64,000 nucleotides of DNA from an uncultured virus (IMG/VR IMGVR_UViG_3300005253_001911) (lineage: Duplodnaviria > Heunggongvirae > Uroviricota > Caudoviricetes), in IMG/VR virus record IMGVR_UViG_3300005253_001911; one strand, 5' to 3'. The position numbers and the translations under genes are program-made. This document shows positions 12,650 through 42,965 of this stretch, piece after piece (the stretch's first letter is position 1; each line of letters begins with the position of its first letter). The notes under the pieces are model-generated. The model searched no databases, was not told where the DNA came from, and was given only the letters and a program-made list of their open reading frames with translations.

Positions 12650-12657
12650 TATACTCC

Positions 12658-13599: not shown

Positions 13600-13613
13600 T
13601 TCTAAACTCCTCC

Positions 13614-14027: not shown

Positions 14028-14030
14028 TTA

Positions 14031-14852: not shown

Positions 14853-14858
14853 AATAGT

Positions 14859-15960: not shown

Positions 15961-15976
15961 AATTCACGCCTCCTGA

Positions 15977-16690: not shown

Positions 16691-16691
16691 T

Positions 16692-17300: not shown

Positions 17301-17310
17301 AATACTCCCC

Positions 17311-17750: not shown

Positions 17751-17765
17751 ATCATATCCCCTCTT

Positions 17766-18083: not shown

Positions 18084-18094
18084 AATTGTCTCCT

Positions 18095-18718: not shown

Positions 18719-18723
18719 TAGTA

Positions 18724-19125: not shown

Positions 19126-19135
19126 TACACAACTC

Positions 19136-21888: not shown

Positions 21889-24800
21889 TTATACAACCCC
21901 CAAATCGAGCCTATTGATATTTGCTAGAGTAAAAGTATGATCGTCTTCTATTCTATTTGACAAGCCAGATATTTGCAACTCTATCATCTGTATCTGAGTT
22001 CTTATTGGGTTTATTTCCACGTTTTTAAAATCACTCAAGGATTTATTTATTTGTGTATCAACATAAGATCTTTCATTCACTAGTTTAGTATTGATATCCC
22101 TAATTGTAAAAGCTAGTTGTTCCTCCAAATCACCCATACTTGTTTTTAAATCATCTATAACAGAAGCTTTTATATCGATAATGTTTATCTGTTCTGTGTT
22201 TGAAATAGACAATTCTTCTAGTCTGTCAAATTTTTCATTGGCGGCCTCAATGAACTGATCTATTGTAGTAGTTCCTACCGCTCCTACACCTGTTATATTC
22301 AAATTATTAAGTGCTTCTTGAACCCCGTCCAAATTTACTTTTAGTTCTGGTAGATCACTTTCATTTGGTATATTTAAATCTATACTAGTTTCTTCTATCT
22401 TTTTGACTACAGCTTCTCCGATTTTTTCTCCTGCCGATTCCATCTCTTTCAATACTTTACCCGGACTCACATCCCCACCCAAAGCAAATTTAGGCAATCC
22501 TATTAATCCGCCCGTATTAAACTCGGATGGAACTATAGCCTCTCCCTTGTGTAAGTAAGCTAATTGATTAGATGGTACAAAAGGAGTTCCTTGTTCGTAA
22601 CTACTTATTAACCCGCCTTCTTTTTTATCTAACTGTTCTAATATATTTTTCAGCTGCTGTTGATTTCTCCTTATAGCCCCTTTATGTCTTTCTGGATCTA
22701 CAGGTAATGGAATATTAAGTATTTTATTGAATCGTGCCTCGGGATCTTCAGCGTTACCAGTTACATCTAACATACTATTATAAAAAGCTTTCCAGGTCGT
22801 AGCCTCATTAAGGGCGTCTGCAGCGGCCTCAAACCCTCTAGAACGTATATTACTAGTAATAAACTTCGCAACATTCGGTGTCCATACAGGTGTTTTGCCT
22901 GGATCCTCCGCAGTTAGATAACGGTGTGCATTTTTATACTCTGGGAGTGCAACTACACCACCCTCTTGGAATGGTTGTATAATACCACCTAATTGTTTTT
23001 TATCTGTAGTTCCAGTAATTTCTTGACCTATATTCCTAAATGTTTTTAACATAAACTCTAACAAACCTGGTCGTTTTGGTTTTCTTATGGTTTCTAAAAC
23101 CTTTTGTACTTCAGGTCCTTTTTGTTTTTTCGCTTCTTTTTCTCTTTTAAGAGCTTCCTCAAGGTTATATTTTGCATTATATATCCGTAATTTAGAGTAA
23201 TCGCCAGAGCTCTCGGCTTCTTTCGAAAGTTTGTTAATCTTATTAATATGAGCCGCTATCCCCCGCTCAGTTTCAATAAGATCTGGTTGGCCACCATTCT
23301 TAAATGATTGTATAATACCACCTTGAAACTTTCCGACCTCACCAGTAAATAAAAATCTAAGATAATCCCAAACACTGTCTTTTTCAGACATCGGAACAGG
23401 TTTAATAGGTTGACGCTCACGTAACTCTTTGGATCTTCGAGCTCTTTGTTCTAATGCTATTTCATCTAGATGTTTCTTTTTAGCTTCTGTAAGTCCGCCC
23501 TTTTGAAATGATGGTATAAGACCACCAGCAAATCCTCGATGGCCAACTATACTAGTAGGTGTTTTGCCCTGAGTAACACGTGAAGATTGTTGTGATTCAA
23601 GCGTAGCCCCAACAGCACGAATAGATCCCTCTCTTGTTCCTGCTAACCCTAGTCTAAGAAGTAAAGTTTTACCAATACGCCCTAGGCCTTTACCAGCAAA
23701 TGATTTTATAATACTACTAAGAGCTCCTGAAAGTGCAAACGAACCAAGACCACCAGCTACTAATCCAGTAGGATCTAATAACGGATCTCTTTTCACTCCT
23801 CCTAATTCTGCTTGTATTTCTTTCATAGAAGCACCACTAGCAAGTTGTTGTTTAATAAACTTATTTTCAGCCAATACTTTACCACCGGATGCTGCCATCG
23901 TTGGCAGATTACCAGTACTGTTTATATAATTCATCACTGGCGTACCTAATTTACTAACTGAAGAGGCTTTAACTACATACTCTCCAGTACTCGCTAAAAT
24001 AGGTACACTGTCTGTGGTAGGGCCTCCTGGTCCTACAATTGAACCACCTTCTTGTTTTGCCTTTGGTGCAGCTCCAGTCTCGTCAACTTTACCAAATACA
24101 CTTGTTTTAATTCTAGATAATATACCAGGCTTAGCTGCAGTATTATCCCTAATAGCTTGTAAATATTGATTAGCATCATTCAGTTCTTTCACCACAGGAG
24201 ATTGAAACACAGATATTTTCTGTATAGTATCCTCAAAGCTCTTTGCAAGATCACCAGTGGCTTTACTTATTGTCTCAAATATCTTTTGGGCCCCTTCACC
24301 TATATCTTCTAAAGGCGCTAATCCTTTACGTCTGAAAACGCCTGGCTCTATCTCTCCTGCTCTTTCACCAGCAGTCCTAACTCGCTCTCTAAGGGCATCA
24401 CGTAATTCTTGAAGAGCGTCTATTTGAGTCTGGCGAGCTGTAGGATCCTCTATTTTAAAAGCTCTCTGCTGAGCTTCAATAAGAGCAGTATCCATATTAG
24501 CAGCTAACCTCAACTGATCTCTAAGTTTATCATCTTCCCTAGCTTGTGCAAGTTTTTTCTGTTGTAACATTGTATCAAATGCTATACGTTGTTCCTCTGC
24601 TAATGTAGGAGCTCGACCTTCCCTGGCAACTATTTCAGCTCTTCTAGATTCAGCCTTATTCATACCAAACAAATCTCCAGATGGTACACCGGCTTGTACC
24701 ATTTCAAATGTAGGAAATACCGGAGCTTCTGGATGAGCTCCGCCCCTCAACCTACTCATAACATCCTCTATTAAATTCTGAAAACCTCGCTGCTCTTCAC

Positions 24801-27800: not shown

Positions 27801-30800
27801 GTAGACCATCCATAGTCGTACCACCAGACTCTACAGCTTCAGTTATACTCATCAACATATCTCTTGGAACAATAGCTCCTGCTCCCTTAGCTTGTTCTCT
27901 AATTCTCTGAATTTGAACCATAGCTTTCGTAACTTGTTCTAGTTCCACAGCCAAGGATTGTCTACGTATACCTTCTTCTCGTATTTCTGTGGCCCCCTGC
28001 GTAAATTCTCTTTTTTCTGTAGGCAATGCACGCTCTCTCAACAGCACTCTCTGATGAGCAGTCAAATCAAAGAAGTTTCTTATACCCAAATTTAAATTAT
28101 CAAAACCCTCCGGTATACCAGCAAGTAGTCCAGCAGTTTCAACTAGATGCTCAGTTCGAGCTTTTTCGACTGCCAGGTTTTCATTTAATATTCTACTGGA
28201 TTCAGCCATAGTTTTATTCAGATCTACCATAACAGCCATATATTGTACAACGACTTGATTATTTTTTATAATAGTGCTAAGCCTTTCTATTTCTTCTTGC
28301 ACTCCTTTACCCAGACTCTTATCAGCATCAAGGCGTTTCTTCGCCGTCTCAGTCAGCATAGCAAGCTCTTTCTGTGGCGCTATGAAGAACTCTCTTATAA
28401 TTTCAGGAAAATCCTGTTTTGTTTTTTGAGGCCCAAATGTACCGGACTGCTTATTGAAACCTATAGGCGTTTGTAATAATGTAGTTGTAGGTATTTGTTC
28501 AAAAAATCTAGGCCCTAAATTAAAAGTACGCTTGAATTCTTTATCTGCAACGCCTATCATACCAGCAGCAGCACCGGTCAATGATTCTTCCAATATATCT
28601 AAATTAACCTCTAACTGCTCCACAATTCTGTGGGCCGGAAATATAGAGTCAACAAAATTTTTCACAGAATCAAATGGGATTTCTTTTGTAGATCTTAGTT
28701 CTTTATCTATCACCTCTACGAAATATCCTAGACCTTCTTTGTATTTTAAAATACCTTGATCACCAGCTACAGCAAATTGTTTTTCTATTTCTTTATCAAA
28801 CAATACTATATCACCTACAAAAGCTTCAGTAGATCTTTGTATTACCTTAGCTTCCCTAAGTAATTCTTTAGTAAATGGCGCTGCGTAATCTATAGAAATT
28901 TCTGGATGTATTCTACGTAAAATTTCTATTCCTAGCACATCCTCCCAATCTACTATACCAACATCAGCTGCTTTACGTAGTCTAGGTTCAATATCCACCA
29001 TCAACTGAAAACCTTTCTCAAGACCTTCACTACCTAATAGTCCACCTATTTGTTCAGCGGTCAATCCTTGAGTACTAAGTTCTGATAAAATACGTTTGAA
29101 ATCATTATAGAACTCATCATATCGTTTACGTATTCCCTCTAAATTCTGATAATAGCGACTAAACAATTCGTCAAATGCAGTAGTCATAGGAAATTTATCT
29201 CTAGCTTCAAGAATCCTATTCAAAGCATCTTTAGCTTCTTTAAGTTCTTGTGCCGGAGACACTTTTATCTGCTCGGCCAAAAGCGGTCCTATACCTGGTA
29301 TCTCCTTAACAAACTTTTTAAGTTCTGATCTAAATTTAGCAGATGCTGATCCTGCATTAGTCAACTCTTCTGCAAATTTTTGTAGTGCAGCTACTTCCGC
29401 CTCTGCTAACTCCTCAATTTTAGCACTTTTCAATACCTTAAAATACTCTTCAAGATTACCCGTCGGCTTCAATATAGCATTACCAAATTCATCAAAACTT
29501 TGTATCAAATCTATGTTTGTCTTAGCCATCAAATTAGCTAAATTTCTAGCCTTTTTAGCATCCTTCTCTAATGCAAATACTGGGCTTACATATTCTTGTC
29601 TTCGTAAAGCAGTTTCTATTGATTGTGGTTCACGGGACTGGTTGGCCTTTTTTATATTTTCATCAAGTTTACTATAAGACCTGGACAATTCAACTATATC
29701 AGATATCTCATCACCTAATTTACGTCTCAATGGAGCTATAGAATCCTCATATTGATCAGCTGAAAAAGCAAGTTTTTTTAATCCATCGCCAATTTTACCA
29801 GTTATAGGTATCAAAGCCAATAAAGAACCAGCAAGAGGAGCTACAGATTTTACAAAATTTGTATTCTCTCGGCTCCACATAGCAAGTGCTTCCGCAGGAA
29901 CACCAAATAACTCGCCTAGCTTTTGAAATGCTCCTTCCGATGCTGCAGCTCCCGTGGCTGCAATATCAAGTATACCAGCAAGTGCGGGATTTTTAGTTAT
30001 GGTAGTAACAGCTAGCCCACCTAACCCGCCTGCAGCCGCACCGAATGCTTTACTTATAGTTTCAGAGGTAGCTGTTCCTGTAGCAGCTATCTCAGACATA
30101 ACAACGTTCCATCCTCTACCAAATTGTGCCAAAGTAAAAGCTGCTTTTCCAATTGTTGACTCAAAGTCTTGTATACTTTGTCCGGCTTTTCCTATAGTAG
30201 TTAGTCCACGTGTATCTATGGTGTTTAGTGCTTTAGGTAATTTACCAAAAGTTTCAAAGATACCTACTTTGAATTGATTCATAAACTCTGAACCAAAATC
30301 AGAGAATACACCAGTAAAAGATTTTATTCTATTAACAACACTACTGATTAAACTACTACCTTTTGTTATTAGAACAAACAGCGCTGAAAATCCTAATGCT
30401 GCAATTTTTAATCCTGGTGGAATGTTTGATATAACCTCTATCACGCCCTTAAGTCCAGTAAGTATTACTTTCGCTACTGGCAATGCAAATTTACCAAACT
30501 GAACTTGAAGTTCTGATAACGATTCTCTAACCTGTTGCAACCTTTTCGCATAGGTCTGCATCACAATCATATTACGTCTTTCAGCGGCACCTTTAGAATT
30601 CACACTATCTTCTAGTGTGTCTAAAACATCGTCCCAGTGGTCCATTAATATAATTAAATTATTATAATGACGCCTACCACCTATAGCTGTAGCAATATTT
30701 AATTTCTGTGCACTATTTAATTCATCCCATTTAGCAGCGAGATCGCCGAGAATATCAAACCCACTTCGAAGAGCGTTAGATTCACCTATAACAGGAATAT

Positions 30801-33800: not shown

Positions 33801-36800
33801 CAGCTTTAGGAAATCTTTCAAGCAACTCCTTTTGTTTTTGTCTATGAACAGCAGTTCCACGTAATCCAGTTACTTCCAACAACGCACTAGGTTTTGTAAG
33901 ACCAAGCATCTCTTGTAATATACCCTCTGTCTGTGTACCACCCCCAAAAGCACCTCCACCCTTCAGAGCGCTCGCTCTAAAAACTTCGTGCAACGGTACT
34001 TGTTTGGCCAGTTCTGGGCCTTTCGCTTTAGACTCCAAGTACTTTAAAGCATCTCTTTTTCTTCGTACTAATGCCTCACTTATAGCCCCAGTTAATGCAT
34101 CAGCAACTCCAACTGTTGTTTCCTTTAGTTCTACAGTGGCAGCCGTATCAGGTATATCAAATGATTTAGCAACCTGCTCTAATTCTTTAGTCCTGGCGGT
34201 AGGAAACGATCTCTTATGCCATTCTTCAATAGCTTTAATTCTATCCTCTTGGCTAGTTATAGCTTCTTTCTCAGCCGCCTGAGTTCTTGCTGCACCTTTT
34301 TCAAAGTCTATATCAGGAAAAGCCCGTTCAAGGTACTCTTTCTGAGCCGGCACAGTTGCCATTATTTCAGACACTCTTCTAAGCTGTTCTATAGTACTTA
34401 ATTGAAACTGTGCAAACTTTTGAATTTTGTCAGTGATTTCTTGTGCTCTCTGTTCTATATCTGCAGGCACAATTTGTTCTTCACGAACTAATGCTTCACG
34501 CTCTAAAAGACCTTTTACTCCTCCAAATATTCTTCCTCGCTGTTTTTCTTCAAACCCAGCTCCTATCAGTGCTTCTTCTTCTGGAATTAGAGGTCTCAAA
34601 CCAGCTATTTTAGATATATCTTCGACCTTAGTCCTGGCTGCTTTTTGAGCTGAGGCCATTTGATCTAGCCATTCAGTTATTTTGCCAGGATCTGGTTGTT
34701 CCCCTGGCGCTCCAGCTTCTCTCAATACCTGTGCCGCCAGCTTATTAGCTTCTAGTATGCCAGAAAATGGTACAGTTACAGCACCAGCAAATCCTTGTGC
34801 CTGTTTTTCAAGTTTCTGCAACTCTTCTAATTCTTTGTATCTTTGCTGTATAGCGGTCAATACTAAGAATTTATGTACTCCACCAGTCTCCACAGTACCA
34901 GTTTCAGCAAGAGCTGTGGATAGAGAAGCTGCTGCTTTTCTCGCGGTTTTTAGATCCCTTCTAAATATATCTCCACCTTCGGCGGGTAAATTAATCTGCT
35001 CTGGATCAATTTTTATACCTGTCCTATCAGCAGCAGTAGCCATGGTTTCCATACTTGTTCGCATTTTATACAACGGCTGTAAATTAGTAACAATGTGCTT
35101 GGATATAGCTATACCTGTATCAGAAATTGATTCTTTAGCAATTCGAATTTCTGCGAATTGTTCTACCCCACCAGCAGCTTTGACATCACGTCTCAATTTC
35201 ACTGTCGCTGGTGTTAGTGGCCCTTCCTCTAGTTGGCGCTGTAGATTTTTACTCAATCCTTTTATAGCAGCCCTTTGGATCATTCTAAATAATTCTTCAA
35301 AAGTTGCTTCTATATTCACCTTACTGAGTATACGCTCCATAAGAGCTTCTCTACTTATGTCAACCTCAGCTTCGGGCTCAAATAGTTGCAATTCTTTTTT
35401 TAATTCTTCTGTAGATAAGGAACCAAGTCTTAATTTCATCTGATTTGTAATTTCATCATTAAAATCAGACAGCTCCTCCCAGTTCTTATCTATACCTTTT
35501 TTCGCATCATCTAAAGACTTTCCAACAAATTCCGAAACATTTGATTTTCCTATCCTAGACAACAACTGAGGTCCAATGGCTTCAACGCCGGCATGTTTTA
35601 CATCCATTCCTTTCTGTATAACGAAACGTAGTATTTCATTTACACGAGCAGCAAATTCGCCTACTGGATCTCTACCTAAGGCCATACTCTCTTTTGGAAA
35701 AGCCTTTAAAAATTCTGGGGCTGGTTGGAAAGCTTTTCCGGTACCAGCGACACCAGCACCAAAACCGGTTTCCATCTCTGATATCCTAGCTAATCTACTA
35801 ATACCTTCGACTGTTCTACCTGTCTCTATCTTAAATAACTGACCACTAATAGCATCTGCATACTTCCGTTCCCATAACTGTCTACGTATTAGTTCCTCAG
35901 TTAGTTTAGCCATGTTCTTTGAAACCACATCAGCGGACTCACCAAGTTCTGGAATACCTGTTTCCGATGATCTAGCCTGCTTTATAAACTCTTCGCGCTG
36001 TGCGGCAGTTGCACCCACCCTCTTAGCCACGTCAGGTATTACTTGTTTCTCAACAAAACCACGGGCAGCTTCTGGTTGATCAAAAAGAGCGCCTAATACT
36101 TCTTTTATATTTAGATTTTTTACATCTTCTTGTATAAACGGTTTAGTAAGAAATTCGAATCCTTGAGTACCAGGGTGTTTTTTACTAAAAATATTGGCCA
36201 TTTCCGACAAAGCTGCAACATCAGTTTCTTTTACAGCAGTAAACACTGATCTAAACAATGTACGTACAGCAGTAGTATCTTTGCCCAGAGCCTCAAAATG
36301 TTTTTTAATTTCATCACGAGATTCTTGTACTTGTCCAGTATGTATAAATAAGGCATCCCCATCAAAATCCAACTTCTGCTCCATACTGGTAAATGTAGGA
36401 ATGGCTCGTTGTATAACTTTTAGCAACCCCTCTATAGCAGAAGTAAGTTTCCCAGCAGCCATGGCACCTTCTTCTGTACCTTTAGCCCATTCTTCTTCCC
36501 GTTTCTTTAATAGAGTTATAGTGTCTTCAGGCAATTCCTTAAGAGGCTTTATACCTACAAATTCTCTCAACTTATCCAGTGTTTGTGTAAGTTCTATTAA
36601 ACCTTCTTGACCTTCCTTCTTTGCAAACCCAGGAGCTCCAGGAACGGCTATCGAAAATTTGCCAAGCGGACCTTTTACAAGATCTTCCATTATTCTGGCT
36701 ATATGAGGTTGTATACTCGATACACCAGTAAATGGAAATCTCACAGATTGAACAAACACATCTTGTTCTTTTTTAATTAGTTCTTCAAGACTAAGAGCTA

Positions 36801-39800
36801 TCTCACTTTTTTCACCAGTCCTGACTTGTATCTTCTTCAACATTTCTGAAGGCAATCCTATTTCGCCAGGCTTCAAAACTGGCAATCCAACTCTCTTAGC
36901 CTTCTCAACAAAGTCGCTATGTAATTCTGTTAGATTTTTTACATTCTTAACTATCCCTTCTATTCCAGGAATCTTCAAATCTATTACATATTCCTTTCCT
37001 AGCTCCTCAAGTAAGTTGTTTAGATCTTCTGTCTTATCTGCTATAGCAGATATAGCTTTTCCAGTAATTGCCGGCGTAACTCTCTGAAAGAAAACCTGTT
37101 CAATACCTTTCTTCTTACCAAATACTTCTTTACCCAGCTCTTTAAAATATCGTACTTTAGCCTTACTCAAAGCTTCTCGTCTTAGTTGTAAAGCCTCTTC
37201 AATGGATTGCTGTATACTTATACCTACATTCTTTGCAAACTCATCCAGGTTGCCAGCTTCCAGTTCAATGTCGAAAACTGTTTTTGCCTTAGTACGTTTT
37301 TCCGTCTGTCTCAAAAAAGATTCTAACAAGGGTTCGAATCCACCAGCTCTTTTAGCTTTAACTTCCAGTTGTGGAGTTCTGAATCTTGAAGGTATATCAC
37401 CGGTAGCCCCTTCACGAAAAGCTTTTAGAGCGGAATTAATCTGATCTACTTCTCTTTTCAATGATTCAGGATTTGCGCCTATTAAAATATCAGAAAGTCT
37501 GCCAAATATTTTACTATATTGTCCTTTAAATCTTTTAGAAAACGCTTCAAAAGAAGGTAGTTCACCAGCTTCGGATCCTTCCTGATAAACTCCTGCAGCG
37601 GGACGTGTAGGCGAAAGAGCAGTCTTGAATTTTCCTATTGTGCGCTCCATGAACTCAATATTCTGTGGCGTAGAGGCTTTCTCAAGTTTTTGGAATGTTT
37701 TTATAGTATCTGTAAGTGTCTTGGTAAGTTCAGCACGGATAGTGGTTGCGAACTTTCTTTGGAATTCTTCACTAAGTCCGGCTCCACGCGTTCTAGCAGC
37801 ATCAGCCAGCTCTTCAACACTTTTTGCAGCACTTATCAAGTTGGCCAAATATCTACCAGTACCTGTTGGAGCTTGTGTACCCAACAATTCTTCTTGATAA
37901 GTACCTCTTAAGGAAGGGCCTGGAACACGAAACTCTTCATATTTTAATGGTCCAGGTTTAGTTGAAGGTATTTGAGTTTTAAAAGCTGTTGGAAATTTAC
38001 CTATATCAAATATTGTGCCTTTGAGTTGTTCAATTGTGCCTGTTGCCTCATCGAATTTTGTTATGTCTTCTAGTTTGACTGACTTTAAACTTTTCAACAT
38101 AGATTCACGCATACCCACCATAGTTGGATCTAATGACTGAAAAGTCTTAATAAGTTCCCACCCCTGGTCAGAAGCCAGGGCAGTGGATGCTGCCAGCTCC
38201 TGCATCATTTTAGACCCTTCACCAAATACTCCTGCCATAGCAGCAAATGATTGAAAGTCTAACCTTAAACCTTTTACACCTTTTTCTATTTCACCTGGAG
38301 TAGCTTCCTTAAATATATGAGGCTCTTCAACTATTTGTAAAAATTTAGGAGCTACTAAACTTTGTACACGCTCACCAAATTCATTTACAACCTCAGTATA
38401 AACAGCAACTGCTTTTTCATATTCTAATAATTTATCTATTTCTTCTTGACTTATACTTGGTTTCTCAAACTTTATTCTTTCTATAACTCCTGCTAAATCT
38501 TTAAATGGTTCAAACCCAAGCTCAATCATAACTTCTCTAAGACTATCCCTGGCTTCTTTAGTTTCTAATAAGGCGCCTTTCTTTATATCATCACTTAACG
38601 TAGTCACACCAGTAGTAGATCCAATAAGATTATTAACAACTGCCTCTAATACTTCAGGCATTAAACCTCTCTTAGCTATACCACGCGAACTTATACGCGC
38701 TTCTATAGGCTTAAATTCAGTCAGAGCTTCCTCTCCAAATCTTGTTTTAGATATATCTTTAATTTCTTTAATACCAGCCACGCCGCTTGGTAATTCTACA
38801 TCAAACATTGATTTAAACACCTGTGACACATCAGTAAATAATTTTTTCTGTTTTAATGCTTCTTCCTCCGTAACTAGTCCTTTGGATGCATCTTTAAACA
38901 TCTCAAGAATAAATTTATTACCTGATTCAATAAGCATGTCATGCATTTTGAGTCCAGCTGCTCCGGCCATTCCACCCTCGGCCTTCATCAACTCAGATAA
39001 TAATTGTCCCATACTTTTAGGTACTTCAGCAACACCCAACCCAGGCCCTGGCTTCACTCCAGCTCTAAACCCACGCTTTATAAAAGTAGATACATCTTCG
39101 ATTGATTTTATACGCTTAGGTAATTCTGGATCACCTTGTTGAGTTACAGACACACCCTTTGTGCCAAAACGAGTTGTAAATTTTCTACCAAAGAAATTTA
39201 AAAATACCTCAGTCAGTGCGGCTGATTGTACTTCAGCAGTCTTACCCCTATGTTCTCTCATTACAGTTTCAATTTTTTTGCCTATATCAGCTATATCAGC
39301 TCTACCCCTATAACGCTGAGGAACACCTAGTATATCTTGAAATTGACCAGATACCTCACCTAACACTTTTTGAAATGATTCCTCACCCTGTTCAGCTCTT
39401 TTTCGAGCTTCGGGTAATACTCTTTGTAATCCCGGTTCTATCTCAGTTATACGTCCACCAGTCTCTAGTAATACTTTAGCAGGCTTTATTAAACGCTGAG
39501 TTATTTCTGTAAAAACCTTTGCCAACCTACCAGAAATAACTATTTGATCTTCAAACGTGGAAGCAGTATTTCTAAGTTCGGTCAGTACATTGAATCCAAA
39601 TCCACCAGCCCCAAACTTACCAGATTCAATCATTCCTCTCTCTTTTGCACTAACTAAGGAAGGTATTTCTCCAGCTCCACCGCCTATTTTCAAAGCATTA
39701 GCAACATTCGATAATTGTCTGTTTATAGAACTAAATTCTTTAAAAGGAGCAGTTGCCCTTAAATTAGCAGTGCTCATATTTATCATAGTTTTGTCTATAG

Positions 39801-42800
39801 CTTTTAGATTGTTGTTTACCAGATTAAGTTGTTTTACTACAGAACTAGCCGCATCACTAACATCTAATGACGACGCAATTGGTTTTCCTAAAAACTCTTT
39901 TCCTTCAAATATACCAGGCTGTCCTAGTCTTTCTGATCTTCGTACAATATCTTTCCATAATAGTCCAGCATCCACTATATGCTTCGTTTGTTGTTCAGGC
40001 CCCAGCGGTTTAGCAGTCGGCCTTGTCAACACGCGCAAGCTTTCAACATCTACAGCGGTACGCTTTACACGTCCAGGCTCTATAAGCGGCATTAATCCTA
40101 CTACCTCGTTAACCACAGACGATATGTCTCTCATACTACTAGTAAATCTCCCTATAGTAGCAGCCTGCTTCTCAATAAATGGGGTTTTACCAGCCTGAAA
40201 TAATCTATCTAGCATGTCATAAAAATTCTCAAACGAAATAGTATCCATAGCTTTAGCTACATCTAAAAAACTCACTTTTAGAACATCAGCTTCTACTAAC
40301 AATTCTTTTATACTACGAGTCGCACCTATAAATTCAGGAGCCTTTTCTGTAGTCAAAGTACCTCGTTCCATACGTCCCATGGCTACAGCTTTAGCCAAGC
40401 CGCCTTTGACCGTGGTTTCTCCTCCAAGCTCTATAACTCTTTTAACAAGGATAGCAGCTAATTTCTCAGCCTTAGCGGCCGTAAGTTCTTCTGCAGGAGT
40501 TCTTGCTCCAGCTCCAGACGGTATCCGTATAGGCAATTTAGAAATTTCACGCATCATACGTTCAAGCTCTACCGCAGGAGCTCCTAGTAACTGCATCTCC
40601 TTAGCCAATCTTTCAAGACCAGTATTAATTGTTGCAAAGTTAGCAACAGCTCTCTCAGCACCAAATTTTGTTTTAAACGCTGGAAGTCCTTGTTCCCCTA
40701 CACTAATAGCTGGTATAGCTAGACGTTTTACAAAATCTTCCATCAATTTCTTTTCTGCTCTGGCCTCTAAAACAACTTGGCTGAATAATCTAGTAAGATC
40801 TGTCTGACTCGTTATTATATCAGCTGGTGCAATAGTTTTTTCCTTTATATCTTTAAATAACTTACCTACAGCTTTTCCCATTTCCTTAGCAGTCTCACTA
40901 GTTAATCCGCCTATCTCCCTATAAAGAGCGTCCGCCATAGCTTCAGGAGTTCTAAACGAAGACAACTGAGCCTGTACAAAAGCCTGTTTGAAAGTATCTA
41001 TTAATTCACCAGCGGTACCTCCTTTCGGTACAAATTGCTGAAAGTCAGAAGCTATTGCTTTACGAAGCCCTCTGACATCTACTATTTTTAGTTCAAACTC
41101 CCCTTTACCAGTGGCTAATTGAAAAGCTTCTCCGGCTTCGGTTTTCAATATTTGCATGCCCTTAGTCATGCCTTTCTCAAGGGAATTAACTATATTATTC
41201 TGTAGTTTGTCCAATGACTTGGCTAAATCACCAAATATAGCTGCGGCTTTTTCTTCCTTGACTGCTCCAGCGGGTGCTTTAAAAGCGAACGGATCAGCGG
41301 TCGGTCTAGGCCCTATTACCTGGCCTCCTTTAAAAATATTAGCTTGTATATTTGATCGTAATTTAGCAAGATCCTCTATTTCAATTACAGCTTTGTTTAG
41401 AGATTTGGTAGTATGCTCAGCAGCAATTGAGGCATCTTTAATATGTGTAGAAAAAGAATCAGCACTGTCAGCAATCTTTGCAGCAGATTCTCTTGTTGCC
41501 TTTTGTAACTCCTCAAAATCGCTGGTTGAAGATTCTACAGTTTTTTGAATAGAGTTTAACTTGGAAGCTAAATCTCCCTCAGCAGCTGCCAATTCTTTTG
41601 TACTTCCATCAACAGCTTTTAATAACGTAGCCGTAATATCTAGGTCAAACGTAGCATCGTGTAGCCCTTTACCAAACGACTTTATCTCTACACCAGCAAG
41701 CCTAAAATCTTCCTCAAATTTAGCTAATGAGTGCGACATGCGTTTTGGAAAAGCTTTTCTAGCCAAATCCAGAGTGTCCACTAATTTATCGATAGCCGAA
41801 TCTATTTCAATTCCGGCTTTCTTGAAATGCTGTTCTAAAACATGTATATCAAACCCTTTTATATTTTGACCAATTATAACTTCAGCATCCTTTAACACGT
41901 CGGCCAATTTCTTCATAGCCTCAGTAGCTTCCATACCTTCTTTTTGCAGTTTTTCAAATGCGATAGGCTCAACTTTACCAATATTACCTATTAGTTTTTT
42001 ATATTGTTCCTCTGTAGTTACACCTTTAGGCGGCTTTACAAGAAACTGACCTTTTTGGGCCTTACCGGACATTATATCAGCTATCGTTCCTTTTTGAAAT
42101 CCTATCTGACTAATAAACTCAACTGCTGCTTTTTTACCAAATTCAGTAGCCACTTTTTTAATTTCAGAGGTCTCCAAATCAACAGCGACTACAATTTTCT
42201 GACCCAGCTTTTCTTTTATATCTTTGAACTCTGCTCCCATATCTTTAAGAGCTTTATCAAACAGAACTGGAGGAGCCATTCGTTCTGTAGGTCTACCAAC
42301 AGGCTTAGTTTTAGCTCCGACAGCTTTTGACAATTCACCAATACTTTTAGACAACTCTTGAGAAGATCTTTCTTTCTTTTTAAGTTCTGTTAAAGCTTTT
42401 TCTAATTTATTTACAACGTCCGCTCTACCAGTCTCAAATGCCCTAGAGGTCTTTACTCTCTTAAGCGCATCAGTAAGTGCTTTTACATGTTTAATAATTT
42501 CTGGAGCATTTTTTATCGTTGCTGCTGCACCGCCAGCGACGCCGGCAGCTTTAATACCGGCTGCAATCTCTGTGGCTATTTTACCTGCTGACACAGCCTT
42601 TTCTATAGCTTTAGGTGTTTCTTTCAATACAACACTTACCTTACTAAGCGCTCCCTGTAAATTATTAATTGCTTTTTCCAACAGAGCCAGTCTCTTTTCA
42701 TTACGTTTAACTACTGCAATATCCACCTCACCAGTTTTTTTCACAATTTCAGCAGACCTCTCCAATGCCCGTTGAAGCTTATCTGCTTGGCGAGTTAATT

Positions 42801-42891
42801 TAACAATAGTCGTAGCCAGATCCTTGGTAGATTTATCGGTTGACGACTTTTCTATGTTTTCTATTTGGATTTTGTAAGTATCGACCGGCAA
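21889..42891 (-). CDS. Giant tape measure protein fused to a DEDDh exonuclease, a single-chain two-barrel RNA polymerase and a PD-(D/E)XK nuclease
   Basis: 7000-aa ORF, TTG start with GGAGG at 42900-42904. It sits in the canonical TMP position (after tail tube and chaperones, before hub). Domain motifs are listed as separate features. Confidence 0.9.
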   Translation of the reverse strand: MPVDTYKIQIENIEKSSTDKSTKDLATTIVKLTRQADKLQRALERSAEIVKKTGEVDIAVVKRNEKRLALLEKAINNLQGALSKVSVVLKETPKAIEKAVSAGKIATEIAAGIKAAGVAGGAAATIKNAPEIIKHVKALTDALKRVKTSRAFETGRADVVNKLEKALTELKKKERSSQELSKSIGELSKAVGAKTKPVGRPTERMAPPVLFDKALKDMGAEFKDIKEKLGQKIVVAVDLETSEIKKVATEFGKKAAVEFISQIGFQKGTIADIMSGKAQKGQFLVKPPKGVTTEEQYKKLIGNIGKVEPIAFEKLQKEGMEATEAMKKLADVLKDAEVIIGQNIKGFDIHVLEQHFKKAGIEIDSAIDKLVDTLDLARKAFPKRMSHSLAKFEEDFRLAGVEIKSFGKGLHDATFDLDITATLLKAVDGSTKELAAAEGDLASKLNSIQKTVESSTSDFEELQKATRESAAKIADSADSFSTHIKDASIAAEHTTKSLNKAVIEIEDLAKLRSNIQANIFKGGQVIGPRPTADPFAFKAPAGAVKEEKAAAIFGDLAKSLDKLQNNIVNSLEKGMTKGMQILKTEAGEAFQLATGKGEFELKIVDVRGLRKAIASDFQQFVPKGGTAGELIDTFKQAFVQAQLSSFRTPEAMADALYREIGGLTSETAKEMGKAVGKLFKDIKEKTIAPADIITSQTDLTRLFSQVVLEARAEKKLMEDFVKRLAIPAISVGEQGLPAFKTKFGAERAVANFATINTGLERLAKEMQLLGAPAVELERMMREISKLPIRIPSGAGARTPAEELTAAKAEKLAAILVKRVIELGGETTVKGGLAKAVAMGRMERGTLTTEKAPEFIGATRSIKELLVEADVLKVSFLDVAKAMDTISFENFYDMLDRLFQAGKTPFIEKQAATIGRFTSSMRDISSVVNEVVGLMPLIEPGRVKRTAVDVESLRVLTRPTAKPLGPEQQTKHIVDAGLLWKDIVRRSERLGQPGIFEGKEFLGKPIASSLDVSDAASSVVKQLNLVNNNLKAIDKTMINMSTANLRATAPFKEFSSINRQLSNVANALKIGGGAGEIPSLVSAKERGMIESGKFGAGGFGFNVLTELRNTASTFEDQIVISGRLAKVFTEITQRLIKPAKVLLETGGRITEIEPGLQRVLPEARKRAEQGEESFQKVLGEVSGQFQDILGVPQRYRGRADIADIGKKIETVMREHRGKTAEVQSAALTEVFLNFFGRKFTTRFGTKGVSVTQQGDPELPKRIKSIEDVSTFIKRGFRAGVKPGPGLGVAEVPKSMGQLLSELMKAEGGMAGAAGLKMHDMLIESGNKFILEMFKDASKGLVTEEEALKQKKLFTDVSQVFKSMFDVELPSGVAGIKEIKDISKTRFGEEALTEFKPIEARISSRGIAKRGLMPEVLEAVVNNLIGSTTGVTTLSDDIKKGALLETKEARDSLREVMIELGFEPFKDLAGVIERIKFEKPSISQEEIDKLLEYEKAVAVYTEVVNEFGERVQSLVAPKFLQIVEEPHIFKEATPGEIEKGVKGLRLDFQSFAAMAGVFGEGSKMMQELAASTALASDQGWELIKTFQSLDPTMVGMRESMLKSLKSVKLEDITKFDEATGTIEQLKGTIFDIGKFPTAFKTQIPSTKPGPLKYEEFRVPGPSLRGTYQEELLGTQAPTGTGRYLANLISAAKSVEELADAARTRGAGLSEEFQRKFATTIRAELTKTLTDTIKTFQKLEKASTPQNIEFMERTIGKFKTALSPTRPAAGVYQEGSEAGELPSFEAFSKRFKGQYSKIFGRLSDILIGANPESLKREVDQINSALKAFREGATGDIPSRFRTPQLEVKAKRAGGFEPLLESFLRQTEKRTKAKTVFDIELEAGNLDEFAKNVGISIQQSIEEALQLRREALSKAKVRYFKELGKEVFGKKKGIEQVFFQRVTPAITGKAISAIADKTEDLNNLLEELGKEYVIDLKIPGIEGIVKNVKNLTELHSDFVEKAKRVGLPVLKPGEIGLPSEMLKKIQVRTGEKSEIALSLEELIKKEQDVFVQSVRFPFTGVSSIQPHIARIMEDLVKGPLGKFSIAVPGAPGFAKKEGQEGLIELTQTLDKLREFVGIKPLKELPEDTITLLKKREEEWAKGTEEGAMAAGKLTSAIEGLLKVIQRAIPTFTSMEQKLDFDGDALFIHTGQVQESRDEIKKHFEALGKDTTAVRTLFRSVFTAVKETDVAALSEMANIFSKKHPGTQGFEFLTKPFIQEDVKNLNIKEVLGALFDQPEAARGFVEKQVIPDVAKRVGATAAQREEFIKQARSSETGIPELGESADVVSKNMAKLTEELIRRQLWERKYADAISGQLFKIETGRTVEGISRLARISEMETGFGAGVAGTGKAFQPAPEFLKAFPKESMALGRDPVGEFAARVNEILRFVIQKGMDVKHAGVEAIGPQLLSRIGKSNVSEFVGKSLDDAKKGIDKNWEELSDFNDEITNQMKLRLGSLSTEELKKELQLFEPEAEVDISREALMERILSKVNIEATFEELFRMIQRAAIKGLSKNLQRQLEEGPLTPATVKLRRDVKAAGGVEQFAEIRIAKESISDTGIAISKHIVTNLQPLYKMRTSMETMATAADRTGIKIDPEQINLPAEGGDIFRRDLKTARKAAASLSTALAETGTVETGGVHKFLVLTAIQQRYKELEELQKLEKQAQGFAGAVTVPFSGILEANKLAAQVLREAGAPGEQPDPGKITEWLDQMASAQKAARTKVEDISKIAGLRPLIPEEEALIGAGFEEKQRGRIFGGVKGLLEREALVREEQIVPADIEQRAQEITDKIQKFAQFQLSTIEQLRRVSEIMATVPAQKEYLERAFPDIDFEKGAARTQAAEKEAITSQEDRIKAIEEWHKRSFPTARTKELEQVAKSFDIPDTAATVELKETTVGVADALTGAISEALVRRKRDALKYLESKAKGPELAKQVPLHEVFRASALKGGGAFGGGTQTEGILQEMLGLTKPSALLEVTGLRGTAVHRQKQKELLERFPKAEIEVPIEDFGNKITGHLDVVYEEAGQKIVADIKTIYSTAQFDRLRQISEEIEKEQTTVQEKLRELKAADPTGYLEKNIIRRLEDYLSQVNVYLKGVEGAVGKIIIVSTFDPRKEFTIDIGAFDPALFDKDIKEVEKSRRIVSNILGSLSVTGGLPPDLLKEYPKIYKELAKKLGAIGPEEFAKTLPTRPVGETPATSQEVLGRLTSKEEERFARMSKEYLDLFQALGGPGQGERQLKFLFAKGGAAAGAAGAPPVPPGGGGPGDGFDDEDEIKKRIEKIITRMQRGIEPEPREMVAIVKAIDDAQEIADAAKGKDGQEQVAANLEALIDSIERVIVQVGGDPESYRKIATTLKEYQAAIINPISAMKDYTADIERIQPSRPEAVHKNLRALYEAAIRINRLADSEEIQKFGPDIAGLLTEAAEKGPGIDISSRLSQAMGDLPVEKRGGLQKIWQFYKKSISEYFLRRLDALKKTIEQESGAPEGRQAFIEYEQVIEKFLANIRGTVGKMSDIFTTAGPSGKKTQFVDEELARLTGIYRSPKQIEELVKQTTVTGTPFKPILDMLTADLDAANIEDIAAPLEKVNAAFSALIAPKGKVQGIDLKEILMDAELFGRFGEEAVAKWDFDKLVQGITQLRAGLQSYNRLRISGFSGADYTEAVRVNVEETVKLLKQLEKAVVPSGGPGGSALGLINVPSNLDPGTQALLHRRNLAQIRKFFKTAEAAGGPERGQAFSLRQKVVDPATKQVLKDSIIHFRNIGQTANSTGQQIGLFTEKYDDMIASLQSRKGVGQAFKRVINWGIASRTVYGMVGALQDTINTMADVETGISKLRQVMSPLNTNFEELTKSALTFAKDFGLPIRQVIDAMRVFAQQGLAQEEVVDRTRTSMLAANVTTLSTTDATEAITAAMKVYRIEGQGTIRFLDSWSEVSAKHAVTSATLADALKKSAAVASTAGVTFDQLNGIITGIGETSRQTGKEIGTSLRFMFRRLTSQKAPEALQKIDIPVIGESNALRSGFDILGDLAAKWDELNSAQKLNIATAIGGRRHYNNLIILMDHWDDVLDTLEDSVNSKGAAERRNMIVMQTYAKRLQQVRESLSELQVQFGKFALPVAKVILTGLKGVIEVISNIPPGLKIAALGFSALFVLITKGSSLISSVVNRIKSFTGVFSDFGSEFMNQFKVGIFETFGKLPKALNTIDTRGLTTIGKAGQSIQDFESTIGKAAFTLAQFGRGWNVVMSEIAATGTATSETISKAFGAAAGGLGGLAVTTITKNPALAGILDIAATGAAASEGAFQKLGELFGVPAEALAMWSRENTNFVKSVAPLAGSLLALIPITGKIGDGLKKLAFSADQYEDSIAPLRRKLGDEISDIVELSRSYSKLDENIKKANQSREPQSIETALRRQEYVSPVFALEKDAKKARNLANLMAKTNIDLIQSFDEFGNAILKPTGNLEEYFKVLKSAKIEELAEAEVAALQKFAEELTNAGSASAKFRSELKKFVKEIPGIGPLLAEQIKVSPAQELKEAKDALNRILEARDKFPMTTAFDELFSRYYQNLEGIRKRYDEFYNDFKRILSELSTQGLTAEQIGGLLGSEGLEKGFQLMVDIEPRLRKAADVGIVDWEDVLGIEILRRIHPEISIDYAAPFTKELLREAKVIQRSTEAFVGDIVLFDKEIEKQFAVAGDQGILKYKEGLGYFVEVIDKELRSTKEIPFDSVKNFVDSIFPAHRIVEQLEVNLDILEESLTGAAAGMIGVADKEFKRTFNLGPRFFEQIPTTTLLQTPIGFNKQSGTFGPQKTKQDFPEIIREFFIAPQKELAMLTETAKKRLDADKSLGKGVQEEIERLSTIIKNNQVVVQYMAVMVDLNKTMAESSRILNENLAVEKARTEHLVETAGLLAGIPEGFDNLNLGIRNFFDLTAHQRVLLRERALPTEKREFTQGATEIREEGIRRQSLAVELEQVTKAMVQIQRIREQAKGAGAIVPRDMLMSITEAVESGGTTMDGLQLDAQRKTEGHTADTVERLDDMLSAMKDPKAQARTIGQVEKFSNQLSKDIVSLGSTMPETLKHQFDRLAKLRQLHEKARNVQVVKAIDQAMTESSRKLIETVGVRKAAEIIEPRKSLIPSPLDVVKSIGKALGPSTDVFRHLPGEFNLEDLLSRAMGGEGLRGFTQRLKQSAEGATESQVRNAKVMNALRFALPGGIGLLTPAVEPVSKFKGIVESPEFKNLSKLMNDQNKISVVSSQTLTKLFAAYGAFNDIARRAARREQRGFEVQIMQLREQRKGLTVKFKAGEIEKTDFVSQTRDINKQMIDLSKRMKEAGKTAETRATREAVGLIASATTTFARSAGFSESALNALGKTAAGSIVAWHAWSTLTGKEMPEAVNKATDALKNWSDGLGDEGVDWLERLKFGAGQLFGGGFGAAGAAGAAAGGVEDMAKAQKDILNEEEKDKIRKMKDLQVSEDQVSKADDLLKDIKAGDTKKLSEDEKMVGINQDQLTTLLSIEENTRRAADGSEESARESKAEPSEEKKPVAAITKTLRDKLDVLRQERLGGKGKDTATRIRDLITAATVVAAGGYLGEKTKLSAELGEATRKAEKISKSFETLVKKFPNEVDAMIKELKVKREEAAKAAAEGAPEPEVKSRLLDAEKQFQTFIGQLSLMADSIGTELKDSTSKIAKAADRAALELHKEQVSKSIDDFAKSIVDASIDLEASMRFSTETIGAMRGLPRFEEIPTGKLPHELTATERLMKEGGEQWQNMFKAFQIISKTRDGIVELIKENSKRIVTQQVSLAKEGSKAFIENQKKAVEKELAKIPKFKALGKRVFEQYKALPEDERKAQQEQTTRSLASFNKRTRDIRSQAKDFNTSMGFSEFEKLMKSRRSQLKRLKDTSRQITKWWREGQITPEVYSKAIPKINKRVIEVQQGVQRLEEFGEKSTLAQAVVVLAEKARDAAEVLKYEADLHKLLAADADKLTQSMAALQQILFTGLNIQQVIGDFKRLKESFKISEEQRGFQNLIEDVMSRLRGGAHPEAPVFPTFEMVQAGVPSGDLFGMNKAESRRAEIVAREGRAPTLAEEQRIAFDTMLQQKKLAQAREDDKLRDQLRLAANMDTALIEAQQRAFKIEDPTARQTQIDALQELRDALRERVRTAGERAGEIEPGVFRRKGLAPLEDIGEGAQKIFETISKATGDLAKSFEDTIQKISVFQSPVVKELNDANQYLQAIRDNTAAKPGILSRIKTSVFGKVDETGAAPKAKQEGGSIVGPGGPTTDSVPILASTGEYVVKASSVSKLGTPVMNYINSTGNLPTMAASGGKVLAENKFIKQQLASGASMKEIQAELGGVKRDPLLDPTGLVAGGLGSFALSGALSSIIKSFAGKGLGRIGKTLLLRLGLAGTREGSIRAVGATLESQQSSRVTQGKTPTSIVGHRGFAGGLIPSFQKGGLTEAKKKHLDEIALEQRARRSKELRERQPIKPVPMSEKDSVWDYLRFLFTGEVGKFQGGIIQSFKNGGQPDLIETERGIAAHINKINKLSKEAESSGDYSKLRIYNAKYNLEEALKREKEAKKQKGPEVQKVLETIRKPKRPGLLEFMLKTFRNIGQEITGTTDKKQLGGIIQPFQEGGVVALPEYKNAHRYLTAEDPGKTPVWTPNVAKFITSNIRSRGFEAAADALNEATTWKAFYNSMLDVTGNAEDPEARFNKILNIPLPVDPERHKGAIRRNQQQLKNILEQLDKKEGGLISSYEQGTPFVPSNQLAYLHKGEAIVPSEFNTGGLIGLPKFALGGDVSPGKVLKEMESAGEKIGEAVVKKIEETSIDLNIPNESDLPELKVNLDGVQEALNNLNITGVGAVGTTTIDQFIEAANEKFDRLEELSISNTEQINIIDIKASVIDDLKTSMGDLEEQLAFTIRDINTKLVNERSYVDTQINKSLSDFKNVEINPIRTQIQMIELQISGLSNRIEDDHTFTLANINRLDLGVV
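30450..31430 (-). other. TP901-family tape measure core domain (aa ~3820-4150)
   Basis: ADVETGISKLRQV...ALTFAKDFG...AMRVFAQQG...LAANV...DATEAITAAM...LADALKKSAAVASTAGVTFDQLNGII...GKEIGTSLRFMFRRL. Confidence 0.88.
33420..33990 (-). other. RecB/Cas4-like PD-(D/E)XK nuclease domain in the giant protein (aa ~2970-3160)
   Basis: RASAL...GTAVH...EIEVPI...ITGHLDVV...IVADIKT...QVNVY. Confidence 0.8.
35550..39620 (-). other. Double-psi beta-barrel RNA polymerase region, beta-like followed by beta'-like (aa ~1090-2450)
   Basis: Ordered motifs TFEDQIVIS, GRKFTTRFGTKGV, ISSRGIAKRG..PEVLE, KGLRLDFQSF, FGKKKGIEQ, PGEIGLP, VRFPFTG..SIQP, LDFDGD (DFDGD at 36355-36369), IQKGMDVKHAG. Confidence 0.85.
41620..42200 (-). 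other. DEDDh (DnaQ/PolIII-epsilon-like) 3'-5' exonuclease domain in the giant protein (aa ~230-425)
   Basis: ExoI VAVDLETS, ExoII IIGQNIKGFD, LVDTLDLAR...HSL, ExoIII LHDATFD. Confidence 0.85.
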
Positions 42892-42965
42892 GTAACAGTC
42901 CTCCTATATTAATAAAAATTATATTAAGAATATTTACAGGACCTTTCCTTGCCGTGGTTGGTAGG

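Follow-up and report, generated by a model that had tools for sequence, protein, structure and literature searches.

A giant phage tape measure protein with a putative RNA polymerase and nuclease domains in its N-terminal half

Here we describe a single gene of 7,000 codons from the IMG/VR virus record IMGVR_UViG_3300005253_001911, a stretch of 64,000 nucleotides (hereafter the window) that comes from an uncultured marine-sediment phage, probably a very large one. The gene encodes a tape measure protein (TMP) whose N-terminal ~3,290 residues form a train of enzymes: an exonuclease of the DEDDh type, a putative single-chain beta-beta' RNA polymerase (RNAP) with a clamp-like domain, and a PD-(D/E)XK nuclease devoid of an iron-sulfur cluster. 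The C-terminal ~3,700 residues are, to judge from profile matches, an ordinary and extremely long tape measure of the TP901 type. The gene is continuous, its domains can be identified, their catalytic motifs are intact and the arrangement is conserved in a large family. The best overall explanation, which we consider probable, is a TMP that carries exonuclease, RNAP and nuclease as a train of enzymes to be delivered.

The fusion of a polymerase to a tape measure has a precedent. In phage P23-45, gp96 is a 5,002-aa TMP whose N-terminal ~1,050-1,200 residues are an active RNAP present in virions (PMC10770324), which transcribes the pre-early genes, one of which codes for a second RNAP (PMC10770324, Chaban et al., Nat Commun 2024). 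Its authors term this fusion a 'previously unsuspected association', and nowhere does their main text use the word 'nuclease' (PMC10770324). A first-pass annotation of the window, made from the letters alone, had cited P23-45 correctly as a case of a TMP-fused virion RNAP and had stated that no described TMP is known to combine an RNAP with an exonuclease and a RecB-family nuclease. Our search of a full-text library, which leaves other papers uncovered, agrees: it returned only the P23-45 paper, with no TMP-polymerase fusion beyond P23-45 and no TMP with nuclease domains. Two other candidates, the 'moraphage' paper (PMC12619734) and an overview of jumbo phages (PMC7824862), were set aside, their available text not concerning this TMP family. 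TMP-fused polymerases have so far been known only from a small group of Thermus phages, and they are met here in a large and diverse family of sediment phages; if the delivery proposed here is true, enzyme transport by the tape measure is a general strategy rather than a curiosity.

RESULTS

Domain organization of the tape measure protein

The gene opens with a TTG start codon (42889-42891) and shows no internal stop in translation over its 7,000 codons, within a stop-to-stop frame of 7004 codons. It lies within the structural module, with head genes on one side and tail-tip/fibre genes on the other, which bears out the earlier description of one uninterrupted open reading frame (ORF) at the place of a TMP. 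The protein was scanned with Pfam and PHROGs in seven overlapping pieces (Table 1). Taking all evidence together, DEDDh exonuclease, RNAP, PD-(D/E)XK nuclease, Gly/Pro linker, TP901-type core and C-terminal TMP motifs were recovered in the order that the first-pass annotation had proposed, and we place high confidence in this architecture and in the domain identities as assigned here.

In the C-terminal half, PhageMin_Tail (PF10145) matches aa 3875-4072 with an E-value of 1.7e-27 (97.1 bits against a cut-off of 33.2), covering profile positions 2-201 in full. There are matches to fourteen further tape-measure PHROGs, phrog_4211 being the best at 1.5e-75, and the core is among the most conserved parts of the family described below. 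Three TMP PHROGs mark the C-terminal motifs at aa ~6240-6361 (phrog_25241 6.7e-8, phrog_3547 6e-6 and phrog_6090 9.6e-5). The linker, with its runs of Gly, Pro and Ala, separates the enzymes from the tape measure part; the region around it (aa 3250-3400) is poorly conserved, with an occupancy of 0.52-0.64 in the homologue alignment. As a separate observation, a motif of the form GG[IL]I..[FY]..GG recurs near the C-terminus of the tape measure in copies ~35-125 residues apart.

A large family of giant proteins shares the architecture

Homologues were sought among proteins of 3,850-12,250 aa. The search yielded 73 giant proteins (query included) of 4,042-7,954 aa, which are 27-100% identical over aa 1050-2500; PF10145 was found in 72 of them. 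The same architecture was present at 21 loci in IMG/VR, and 166 matching stretches in metagenome contigs gave 57 loci that were kept, one of which (L026) is 100% identical over aa 1051-2250. A metagenomic search for the architecture, which had been suggested as a check on the first prediction, was therefore amply positive. A profile of the beta-like part of the polymerase retrieved 87 clusters at 50% identity from 1.84 billion protein representatives; nearly all are giant proteins or fragments of them, and apart from a few other giant proteins every match belongs to the family. Since it recurs in 73 giant proteins and 87 clusters, the architecture is not an artefact of assembly.

Conservation was measured on an alignment of 67 homologues with a length of 6,500-8,000 aa, the other six of the 73 being dropped. 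It is highest over aa ~1050-1700, 1900-2250 and 2350-2450 and in the TMP core (3800-4150). The RNAP and the PD-(D/E)XK nuclease are found in both clades of the family, that of the window and a more distant one. The frame is open to the end of the available DNA in 17 of the 21 loci checked; those of L010 and L020 stop after 4,842 and 4,534 aa, and L003 and L017 run off short contigs. At one locus (L014, same record as L065) we noted in-frame TAG codons at 11789 and 12806, in the polymerase region of a frame otherwise open over 6257-20381, which could be explained by read-through or recoding, by decay to a pseudogene or by errors in sequencing. From the completeness estimated by CheckV, genomes of the family would be roughly 180-270 kb in size.

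Continuity of the gene was also assessed with short Logan contigs. In four sequencing runs, which come from three studies, coverage of window positions 22900-42895 extends to all 30 bins at fairly even depth, and the only indels in the gene are paired, compensating ones. The contigs are at most ~1.5 kb and none bridges the gene; the few joints, with sides of 20-29 letters or lying in diverged stretches of the same length, were not counted. The window contains no N, and GC skew and base composition are even along the tape measure gene.

Four more distant giant proteins of 4,331-6,409 aa (P0123, P0128, P0129 and P0130) also carry [FW]ED[QS] and D[FY]DGD; all but P0130 show the K...R.G.KG motif as well. 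Carrying these polymerase motifs, they indicate that the polymerase-in-giant-protein design reaches beyond the TMP family. Hosts proposed from the labels of metagenome-assembled genomes (MAGs) for contigs of 16-25 kb were rejected, the labels at three loci being mutually contradictory (Woesearchaeota, Gammaproteobacteria and Fermentibacteria). The source names of homologues also include MAGs of Thorarchaeota and Bacteroidetes, and because the taxon labels disagree we read them as mis-binned phage contigs.

The polymerase: beta'-like half

The metal-binding motif of the beta' barrel, D[FY]DGD, is kept in each of the 73 homologues and, with the residues before it, reads KLD[FY]DGD or nearly so. 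Upstream of it, RFP (aa 2051-2053) is separated from DFDGD by a helical insertion of ~90 aa inside the barrel. Among 19 family members scanned singly with Pfam, RNA_pol_Rpb1_2 was by far the commonest family (10 of 19, best E 6e-4), and the only match of the family profile on E. coli RpoC in hhalign was the NADFDGD stretch at 457-481 (E 0.011).

Two AlphaFold2 (AF2) models of aa 1051-2250 were built, model 1 with 19 and model 2 with 47 aligned sequences, with a mean pLDDT of 67.2 and 70.7 and a pTM of 0.34 and 0.39, respectively. Each was compared by VIA-align with 48,161 PDB representatives, the best 50 rows being considered. For each model, 15 of these 50 rows are largest subunits of RNAP or their clamp, at or near the top. 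Matches of model 2 include Pol IV (7eu0_A, Z 10.9, 126 aa, 21% identity), human Pol I (7ob9_A, Z 10.4 over 269 aa, rmsd 4.3, model 540-1164 against chain 18-627), Pol II (9mu7_A, Z 10.3), the enzymes of African swine fever virus (ASFV; 8q3b_A, Z 10.2) and of an archaeon (2pmz_A, Z 10.1), Pol III and vaccinia (5fj8_A and 6rfl_A, Z 9.7 each), M. tuberculosis beta' (6edt_D, Z 9.1, 266 aa) and QDE-1 (7y7p_A, Z 9.1), as well as the phage enzymes of AR9 (7s00_d, Z 7.9) and phiKZ (7ogp_A, Z 7.5). An archaeal RNAP clamp (3qqc_A) matches at Z 8.7 over model residues 519-886, and a designed double-psi barrel (7dww_A) matches the barrel at Z 9.5 and 7.4 in the two runs. Model residues 540-1164 would thus correspond to the N-terminal ~600 residues of beta'/Rpb1 homologues, in a model with a pTM of 0.39. 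Most of the remaining rows are helical bundles that fall on a helical hairpin at model 900-1120, which is the insertion between RFP and DFDGD. As Z 7-8 is common background according to the notes of the aligner, the weight of these comparisons rests on the consistency of the family matched and on the aligned lengths. Structure prediction and weak Pfam matches thus support a beta'-like half composed of a clamp-like domain and the DFDGD barrel.

The window's own sequence is far less telling in direct searches. Between aa 701 and 3000 it has no Pfam or PHROG match. The RNAP region gave no match among PDB sequences with phmmer or hmmsearch (single sequence, and alignments A2 and A5), none by tblastn in 50,697 GenBank phage records and none among the named clusters of the ESM Atlas.

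The polymerase: beta-like half and flanking regions

N-terminal to the beta'-like module, invariant motifs define a second, beta-like module: FEDQ (1113-1116), GRK..TR.G.KG (1235-1246) and SSRGIAKRG (1401-1409). FEDQ and GRK..TR.G.KG are unchanged in 47 of 47 aligned sequences, as is R.P. The motifs of E. coli and of the window follow each other in the same order, FEDS/FEDQ, GDKMAGRHGNKG/GRKFTTRFGTKG, PSRMN/SSRGI, NRAPTLHRLGIQ/VRFPFTGVSSIQ and NADFDGDQ/KLDFDGDA. On E. coli RpoB, hhalign found a single match, the catalytic-lysine motif at 1062-1076 (PGDKMAGRHGNKGVI), with an E-value of 0.16, or 0.054 with a shorter alignment. A complex prediction of the beta-like part (aa 1086-1480) with the beta'-like part (aa 1900-2250) and Mg returned a score of 0.00.

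One complete relative (G003; 268,764 bases, CheckV 100%) also encodes a stand-alone fused beta-beta' RNAP of 1,102 aa (L091:4212-7520, minus strand, equivalent to G003:C1:44214-47519). Pfam recognizes it through RNA_pol_Rpb1_2 (1.6e-5, above the cut-off) and RNA_pol_Rpb2_6 (0.0048), and two PHROGs annotated as phage 'RNA polymerase beta subunit' also match it (7e-7 and 3.5e-6). The profile of the TMP family aligns with this enzyme in the FEDQ region (hhalign Prob 75%, E 2.5e-5), and tblastn of the enzyme on the window gives weak, colinear matches within the TMP gene. A two-barrel RNAP, as the first-pass annotation had proposed, is very likely. Its beta' half is upheld by fold comparison and by Rpb1_2 in 10 of 19 members, and its beta half, in a part of the models with pLDDT mostly below 50, is suggested by motifs, hhalign and homology to the stand-alone RNAP.

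Conserved regions flank the two modules. That at aa 550-1085 is possibly an N-terminal lobe of the polymerase. On the other side, aa 2216-2750 contain invariant K2354, G2358 and E2362 and the motif NE..R...Q.G.D.K..G at 2418-2435; when alignment A6 (aa 2201-2750) was compared by hhalign with RpoC and the stand-alone RNAP, only the residual DFDGD stretch aligned.

The two nucleases

The PD-(D/E)XK nuclease follows the polymerase. It was recognized at aa ~3008-3077 by phrog_1706 ('CRISPR/Cas system associated', E 2.2e-6), and the family profile matches Cas4 structures (4ic1_A, E 9.4e-6; 4r5q_A, E 0.005), in agreement with the first-pass assignment. PDDEXK_1 is the commonest Pfam family among members of the region (4 of 29, best E 5e-4). 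The alignment of 29 sequences shows no variation at G40, Q48, G73, G106, D109, K124, S178, Q179, N181 and Y183, while H77, E94 and D122 each occur in at least 90% of the rows. The core reads G3012, H3016, E3033, G3045, D3048, D3061-I-K3063 and SQ3118.N.Y3122 in the numbering of the protein, with a D...(D/E)xK core at D3048 and D3061-I-K3063 and a QxxxY motif at Q3118...Y3122. By tblastn, aa 2940-3240 are kept in frame in loci of both clades, at identities down to 22-30%. The domain shares the G..H, E, GhxD, DIK and SQ.N.Y motifs with Cas4 and RecB-family nucleases (4ic1, 4r5q) and differs from them in being embedded in a structural protein and in lacking cysteines; for the latter reason the four-cysteine iron-sulfur cluster of Cas4 proper is excluded.

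Near the N-terminus, the DEDDh exonuclease is matched by Pfam RNase_T at aa 313-423 (E 2.8e-8; bit score 34.9, cut-off 24) and by phrog_403 ('DNA polymerase exonuclease subunit', 1.8e-14), and it aligns with residues 84-192 of E. coli Pol III epsilon (2gui_A, E 0.0039). All five catalytic residues, D238, E240, D348, H411 and D416, are intact, which confirms the domain as first described. The domain thus resembles DnaQ and RNase T exonucleases in profile, residues and alignment, and differs from them in its fusion to a TMP and in its confinement to one clade of the family. The catalytic residues are retained in 29 of 67 full-length homologues (D348 in 32 of 67), all in the closer group; RNase_T was detected in 5 of 19 N-termini scanned, each from a closer relative, and in none of 12 from the distant clade. 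The exonuclease is therefore a feature of the window's clade and not of the whole family and, being missing from the distant clade, it is not essential to the core mechanism.

Absence of cysteine

The 7,000-aa TMP contains no cysteine, against 152 in 12,434 aa (1.22%) for the 38 other minus-strand ORFs that reach 150 aa; at this frequency, the chance of finding none in 7,000 residues is about 4e-38. Among the 80 lowest values listed for homologues of more than 6,000 aa, 67 are zero and the highest is 0.52 per 1,000. In the complete relative, the available part of the TMP has no cysteine in 5,582 aa, against 16 in the 1,102 aa of the stand-alone RNAP (1.45%). P23-45 gp96 is also free of cysteine; as the non-virion gp64 of that phage has none either, the pair is uninformative in this respect.

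Such a composition suggests selection acting on the whole chain, enzymes included. It would fit a protein that is stored and moved in an unfolded state and crosses an oxidizing compartment, and the total lack of cysteine, in the enzymes as elsewhere, provides one new, indirect support for delivery with the genome. A zero-cysteine composition may also serve as a simple sequence signature for finding other ejected enzymes.

Comparison with known polymerases

The protein has a principle in common with P23-45 gp96 (8h2m, 8h2n), that of a polymerase fused to a tape measure: both are giant TMPs with an N-terminal two-barrel RNAP bearing DFDGD and a C-terminal tape measure, and P23-45, like the complete relative here, has a second, non-virion RNAP. 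What is new with respect to gp96 is a cellular-like polymerase with a clamp-like domain, two added nucleases, a large family of sediment phages and the striking composition of the chain. The enzymes themselves differ widely. The 47-sequence family profile gives no meaningful alignment with gp96 1-1200 (hhalign Prob 0.2%), and the structural match of 8h2m_A to model 1 is confined to the DFDGD barrel (Z 7.9, 93 aa). The RNAP of gp96 lies at the extreme N-terminus (DFDGD at 779) and is described as clamp-less, whereas that of the window starts after ~1,000 residues (DFDGD at 2175) and has, in a model with a pTM of 0.39, a clamp-like domain that matches RNAP clamps. A nuclease domain is not described for gp96 in the main text of the paper, and the metallopeptidase of gp96 was not found in the window protein. 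The precedent cited in the first-pass annotation holds for the fusion to a TMP; the enzyme itself resembles cellular beta/beta'. Supplementary Data 4 of the P23-45 paper lists two-RNAP viruses found by the filter [RK]xPx{20,100}DxDxD (PMC10770324); since the spacing between RFP and DFDGD is 121 residues here, that filter would miss the TMP family.

The window enzyme matches cellular RpoB and RpoC motif for motif, in the order beta then beta', and structurally in the clamp and the active-site barrel. Unlike them, it is a single chain without zinc-binding cysteines, it has ~105 aa after the lysine motif in addition to the insertion in the beta' barrel, and its own sequence is too divergent for Pfam. 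It may accordingly be viewed as a new, compact, single-chain relative of cellular RNAP. The stand-alone RNAP of the complete relative and the subunits of jumbo phages (phrog_3295, phrog_2987) share a homologous beta-like region with it (E 2.5e-5 for the stand-alone enzyme), and the stand-alone enzyme is encoded in a phage of the same family and colinear, though weakly, in tblastn; it is nevertheless compact, not fused to a TMP, endowed with 16 cysteines and recognized by both Pfam and PHROGs. The virion RNAPs of crAss-like phi14:2 (gp66) and of N4 are also carried in very large virion proteins and injected to transcribe early genes (PMC10770324), but both phages are podoviruses without a tape measure, and the N4 enzyme is T7-like rather than two-barrel.

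DISCUSSION

A proposed model of enzyme delivery

By analogy with gp96, the proposed sequence of events would be as follows. The chain would fill the lumen of the tail with its C-terminus at the tip and, at infection, would leave the virion with or ahead of the DNA, forming or lining a channel in which the two hydrophobic segments after the core (aa 4136-4186 and 4346-4364) may take part. The N-terminal enzymes would thereby arrive at the cytoplasmic side. There the TMP-borne polymerase would make the first phage transcripts with no need for the host enzyme, and a stand-alone RNAP, found in the one complete relative, would take over later transcription. The substrates of the nucleases would be DNA ends or nucleic acid of the host where the phage enters; the enzymes may resect the incoming DNA end into a single-stranded template, attack the DNA or RNA of the host, or protect against host defences. 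The polymerase is quite likely to be an active DNA-dependent RNAP. As to the ejection of the enzyme-bearing TMP into the host, for which gp96 is the model, we lean slightly towards it.

Several observations weigh against this scheme. The presence in virions and the ejection of the enzymes are deduced by analogy with gp96, whose authors tie passage through the tail to its flat, clamp-less shape and propose that this shape permits it (PMC10770324). The window polymerase appears to have a clamp and so would probably have to pass in an unfolded state. The more distant clade lacks the exonuclease. Regarding the polymerase, Z-scores of 9-11 for a model of 1,200 residues exceed the background stated for the aligner only moderately, and model residues 1-235, which hold the beta-like barrel, mostly have pLDDT below 50 in both models. 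Foldseek and AlphaFold had been put forward as checks on the RNAP region: Foldseek gave nothing, with no significant match of model 1 to PDB at E of 0.001 or below and none of model 2 to BFVD, where the top hit was a crAss-like 'putative RNA polymerase' (E 8.8e-3, prob 0.12), and the positive outcome came from the AF2 model, matched to RNAP largest subunits through VIA-align. The beta-like profile reaches no cellular RpoB in PDB or among the 1.84 billion protein representatives, and equivalents of the bridge helix and trigger loop were not identified in aa 2216-2750 by hhalign to RpoC and the stand-alone RNAP. Finally, no second RNAP was seen in the window or in seven partial relatives; all of these are incomplete, and its lack there says little.

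If the model is correct, the protein becomes a test case for how a multidomain enzyme of ~150 kDa could pass a tail tube. In its boldest form, which we consider doubtful, the family would represent a second, independent invention of a tape-measure-tethered virion polymerase, made from a cellular-type beta-beta' enzyme with its clamp and not from an enzyme of the P23-45 type. A train of ~3,300 residues would be threaded unfolded through a tail of at least half a micrometre and refold at the entry pore, where the PD-(D/E)XK nuclease, joined in the window's clade by the DEDDh exonuclease, would cut back the end of the genome that enters first. On the single-stranded template so exposed, a sigma-less polymerase would begin the first transcripts during DNA uptake.

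Alternative explanations

The enzymes could also act without ever entering the tail, if the N-terminal half were cleaved off in the producing cell, for instance at the Gly/Pro/Ala linker, to serve as non-virion enzymes or scaffold. The low complexity and poor conservation of the linker that divides the halves would suit this, the clamp-like domain in the model looks bulky for the lumen of a tail, and fusion by itself does not prove co-packaging. Yet the enzyme half is as free of cysteine as the tape measure half, at odds with the 1.45% of the relative's stand-alone RNAP; the fusion is retained in every full-length homologue, the 13 shorter matches being mostly partial or at contig ends and none convincingly split; and the fused RNAP of P23-45 is present in virions (PMC10770324). 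We regard such cleavage as unlikely. A different objection concerns the nature of the catalyst, since the fold alone does not fix template or product: replicative DNA polymerases typically have a 3'-5' exonuclease at their side, which might point to a PolD-like DNA polymerase or primase with DEDDh proofreading, and QDE-1 stands among the structural matches (7y7p_A, Z 9.1), as would suit a QDE-1-like RNA-dependent polymerase. The matches to largest subunits of DNA-dependent RNAP are, however, more numerous and longer (250-270 aa) and include the clamp, the motifs agree with the signatures of beta and beta', and the distant clade keeps the polymerase and not the exonuclease. PolD chains are absent from the 50 rows of either VIA-align list, which is a weak negative, and another type of two-barrel enzyme appears distinctly improbable to us.

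That the polymerase-like region is a catalytically dead relic, adding length to the tape measure or acting as its plug, is very improbable. It would account for the failure of any Pfam or PHROG model to recognize the window's own sequence there, and for the part of the region without a confident fold; it is hard to reconcile with catalytic signatures that stay invariant at 27-30% overall identity (D[FY]DGD in 73/73; FEDQ, GRK..R.G.KG and R.P in 47/47) in one of the best conserved parts of the protein. The 21-kb ORF might lastly be a chimera assembled from genes of different phages, a concern raised by its metagenomic origin and by the lack of a single contig across it among pieces of at most ~1.5 kb. 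Against this stand the same domain order in 73 proteins from many assemblies and sources, the 21 IMG/VR and 57 metagenome loci including the fully identical L026, and the even depth over 30 bins in four runs from three studies, and we judge a chimera to be extremely improbable. The delivered enzyme train remains the reading that we prefer.

Genomic context and other features of the window

Coordinates of the features are collected in Table 1. The minus strand holds 40 of the 43 ORFs of at least 150 aa in the window. Upstream of the TMP gene lies a major-head-like gene (61102-62172), and downstream are a tail-spike-like gene (8313-9629) and genes with immunoglobulin (Ig) domains, all on the same strand as the TMP; most neighbours match no family. 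The Ig-domain genes, at 3502-6135, 9652-10857 and 10867-12126 (minus strand), carry bacterial Ig-like domains (Big_1, Invasin_D3, Big_5) and probably encode fibres or decoration proteins.

Table 1. Features of the tape measure gene and its surroundings, in window coordinates
Feature	Residues	Position	Strand	Evidence
Tape measure polyprotein, whole gene, 7,000 aa		21889..42891 (stop codon included)	minus	ORF listing; homologues of 4042-7954 aa
Ribosome-binding site AGGAGG, 8 nt 5' of TTG		42900..42905	minus	Upstream sequence
N-terminal Ala/Lys/Glu-rich helical region	1-230	42202..42891	minus	Composition; weak likeness to TMP N-terminus (phrog_10613, E 0.0081)
DEDDh (DnaQ/RNase T-like) 3'-5' exonuclease	232-432	41596..42198	minus	Pfam, PHROG, PDB match, residues
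Region conserved in both clades, no family assigned	550-1085	39637..41244	minus	Conservation profile; weak colinear tblastn of stand-alone RNAP (G003)
Beta-like module	1086-1480	38452..39636	minus	Invariant columns; hhalign to RpoB and stand-alone RNAP
Beta'-like module: clamp-like domain and active-site double-psi barrel	1590-2215	36247..38124	minus	VIA-align; Pfam in family members
DFDGD metal-binding motif	2175-2179	36355..36369	minus	Motif search; hhalign to E. coli beta'
Conserved C-terminal polymerase region	2216-2750	34642..36246	minus	Invariant columns of alignment A6
PD-(D/E)XK nuclease, Cas4/RecB-like core	2940-3240	33172..34074	minus	Alignment A4, PDB profile matches, Pfam, PHROG
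Gly/Ala/Pro linker, enzyme half to tape measure half	3273-3293	33013..33075	minus	Sequence runs; low occupancy
TP901-type tape measure core	3816-4300	29992..31446	minus	PF10145, phrog_4211
Hydrophobic segments after the core	4136-4186 and 4346-4364	29800..30486	minus	Kyte-Doolittle scan
C-terminal TMP motif region	6240-6361	23809..24174	minus	Three TMP PHROGs
Five GG[IL]I..[FY]..GG repeats	6456-6806	22474..23526	minus	Motif scan
Homing-endonuclease genes		1924-2838, 14031-14852, 15280-15960, 16692-17402, 52920-53678, 55697-56197, 58607-59221, 60007-60687	minus	HNH / endonuclease VII-like

Two further observations concern the structural module. At least eight homing-endonuclease genes of the HNH or endonuclease VII-like type are scattered among the structural genes of the window, an unusually dense occurrence. 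The module also encodes a 564-aa protein with two glycosyltransferase domains (49609-51303, minus strand), one matched by Glycos_transf_1 (1.3e-13) and the other, weakly, GT2/Fringe-like.

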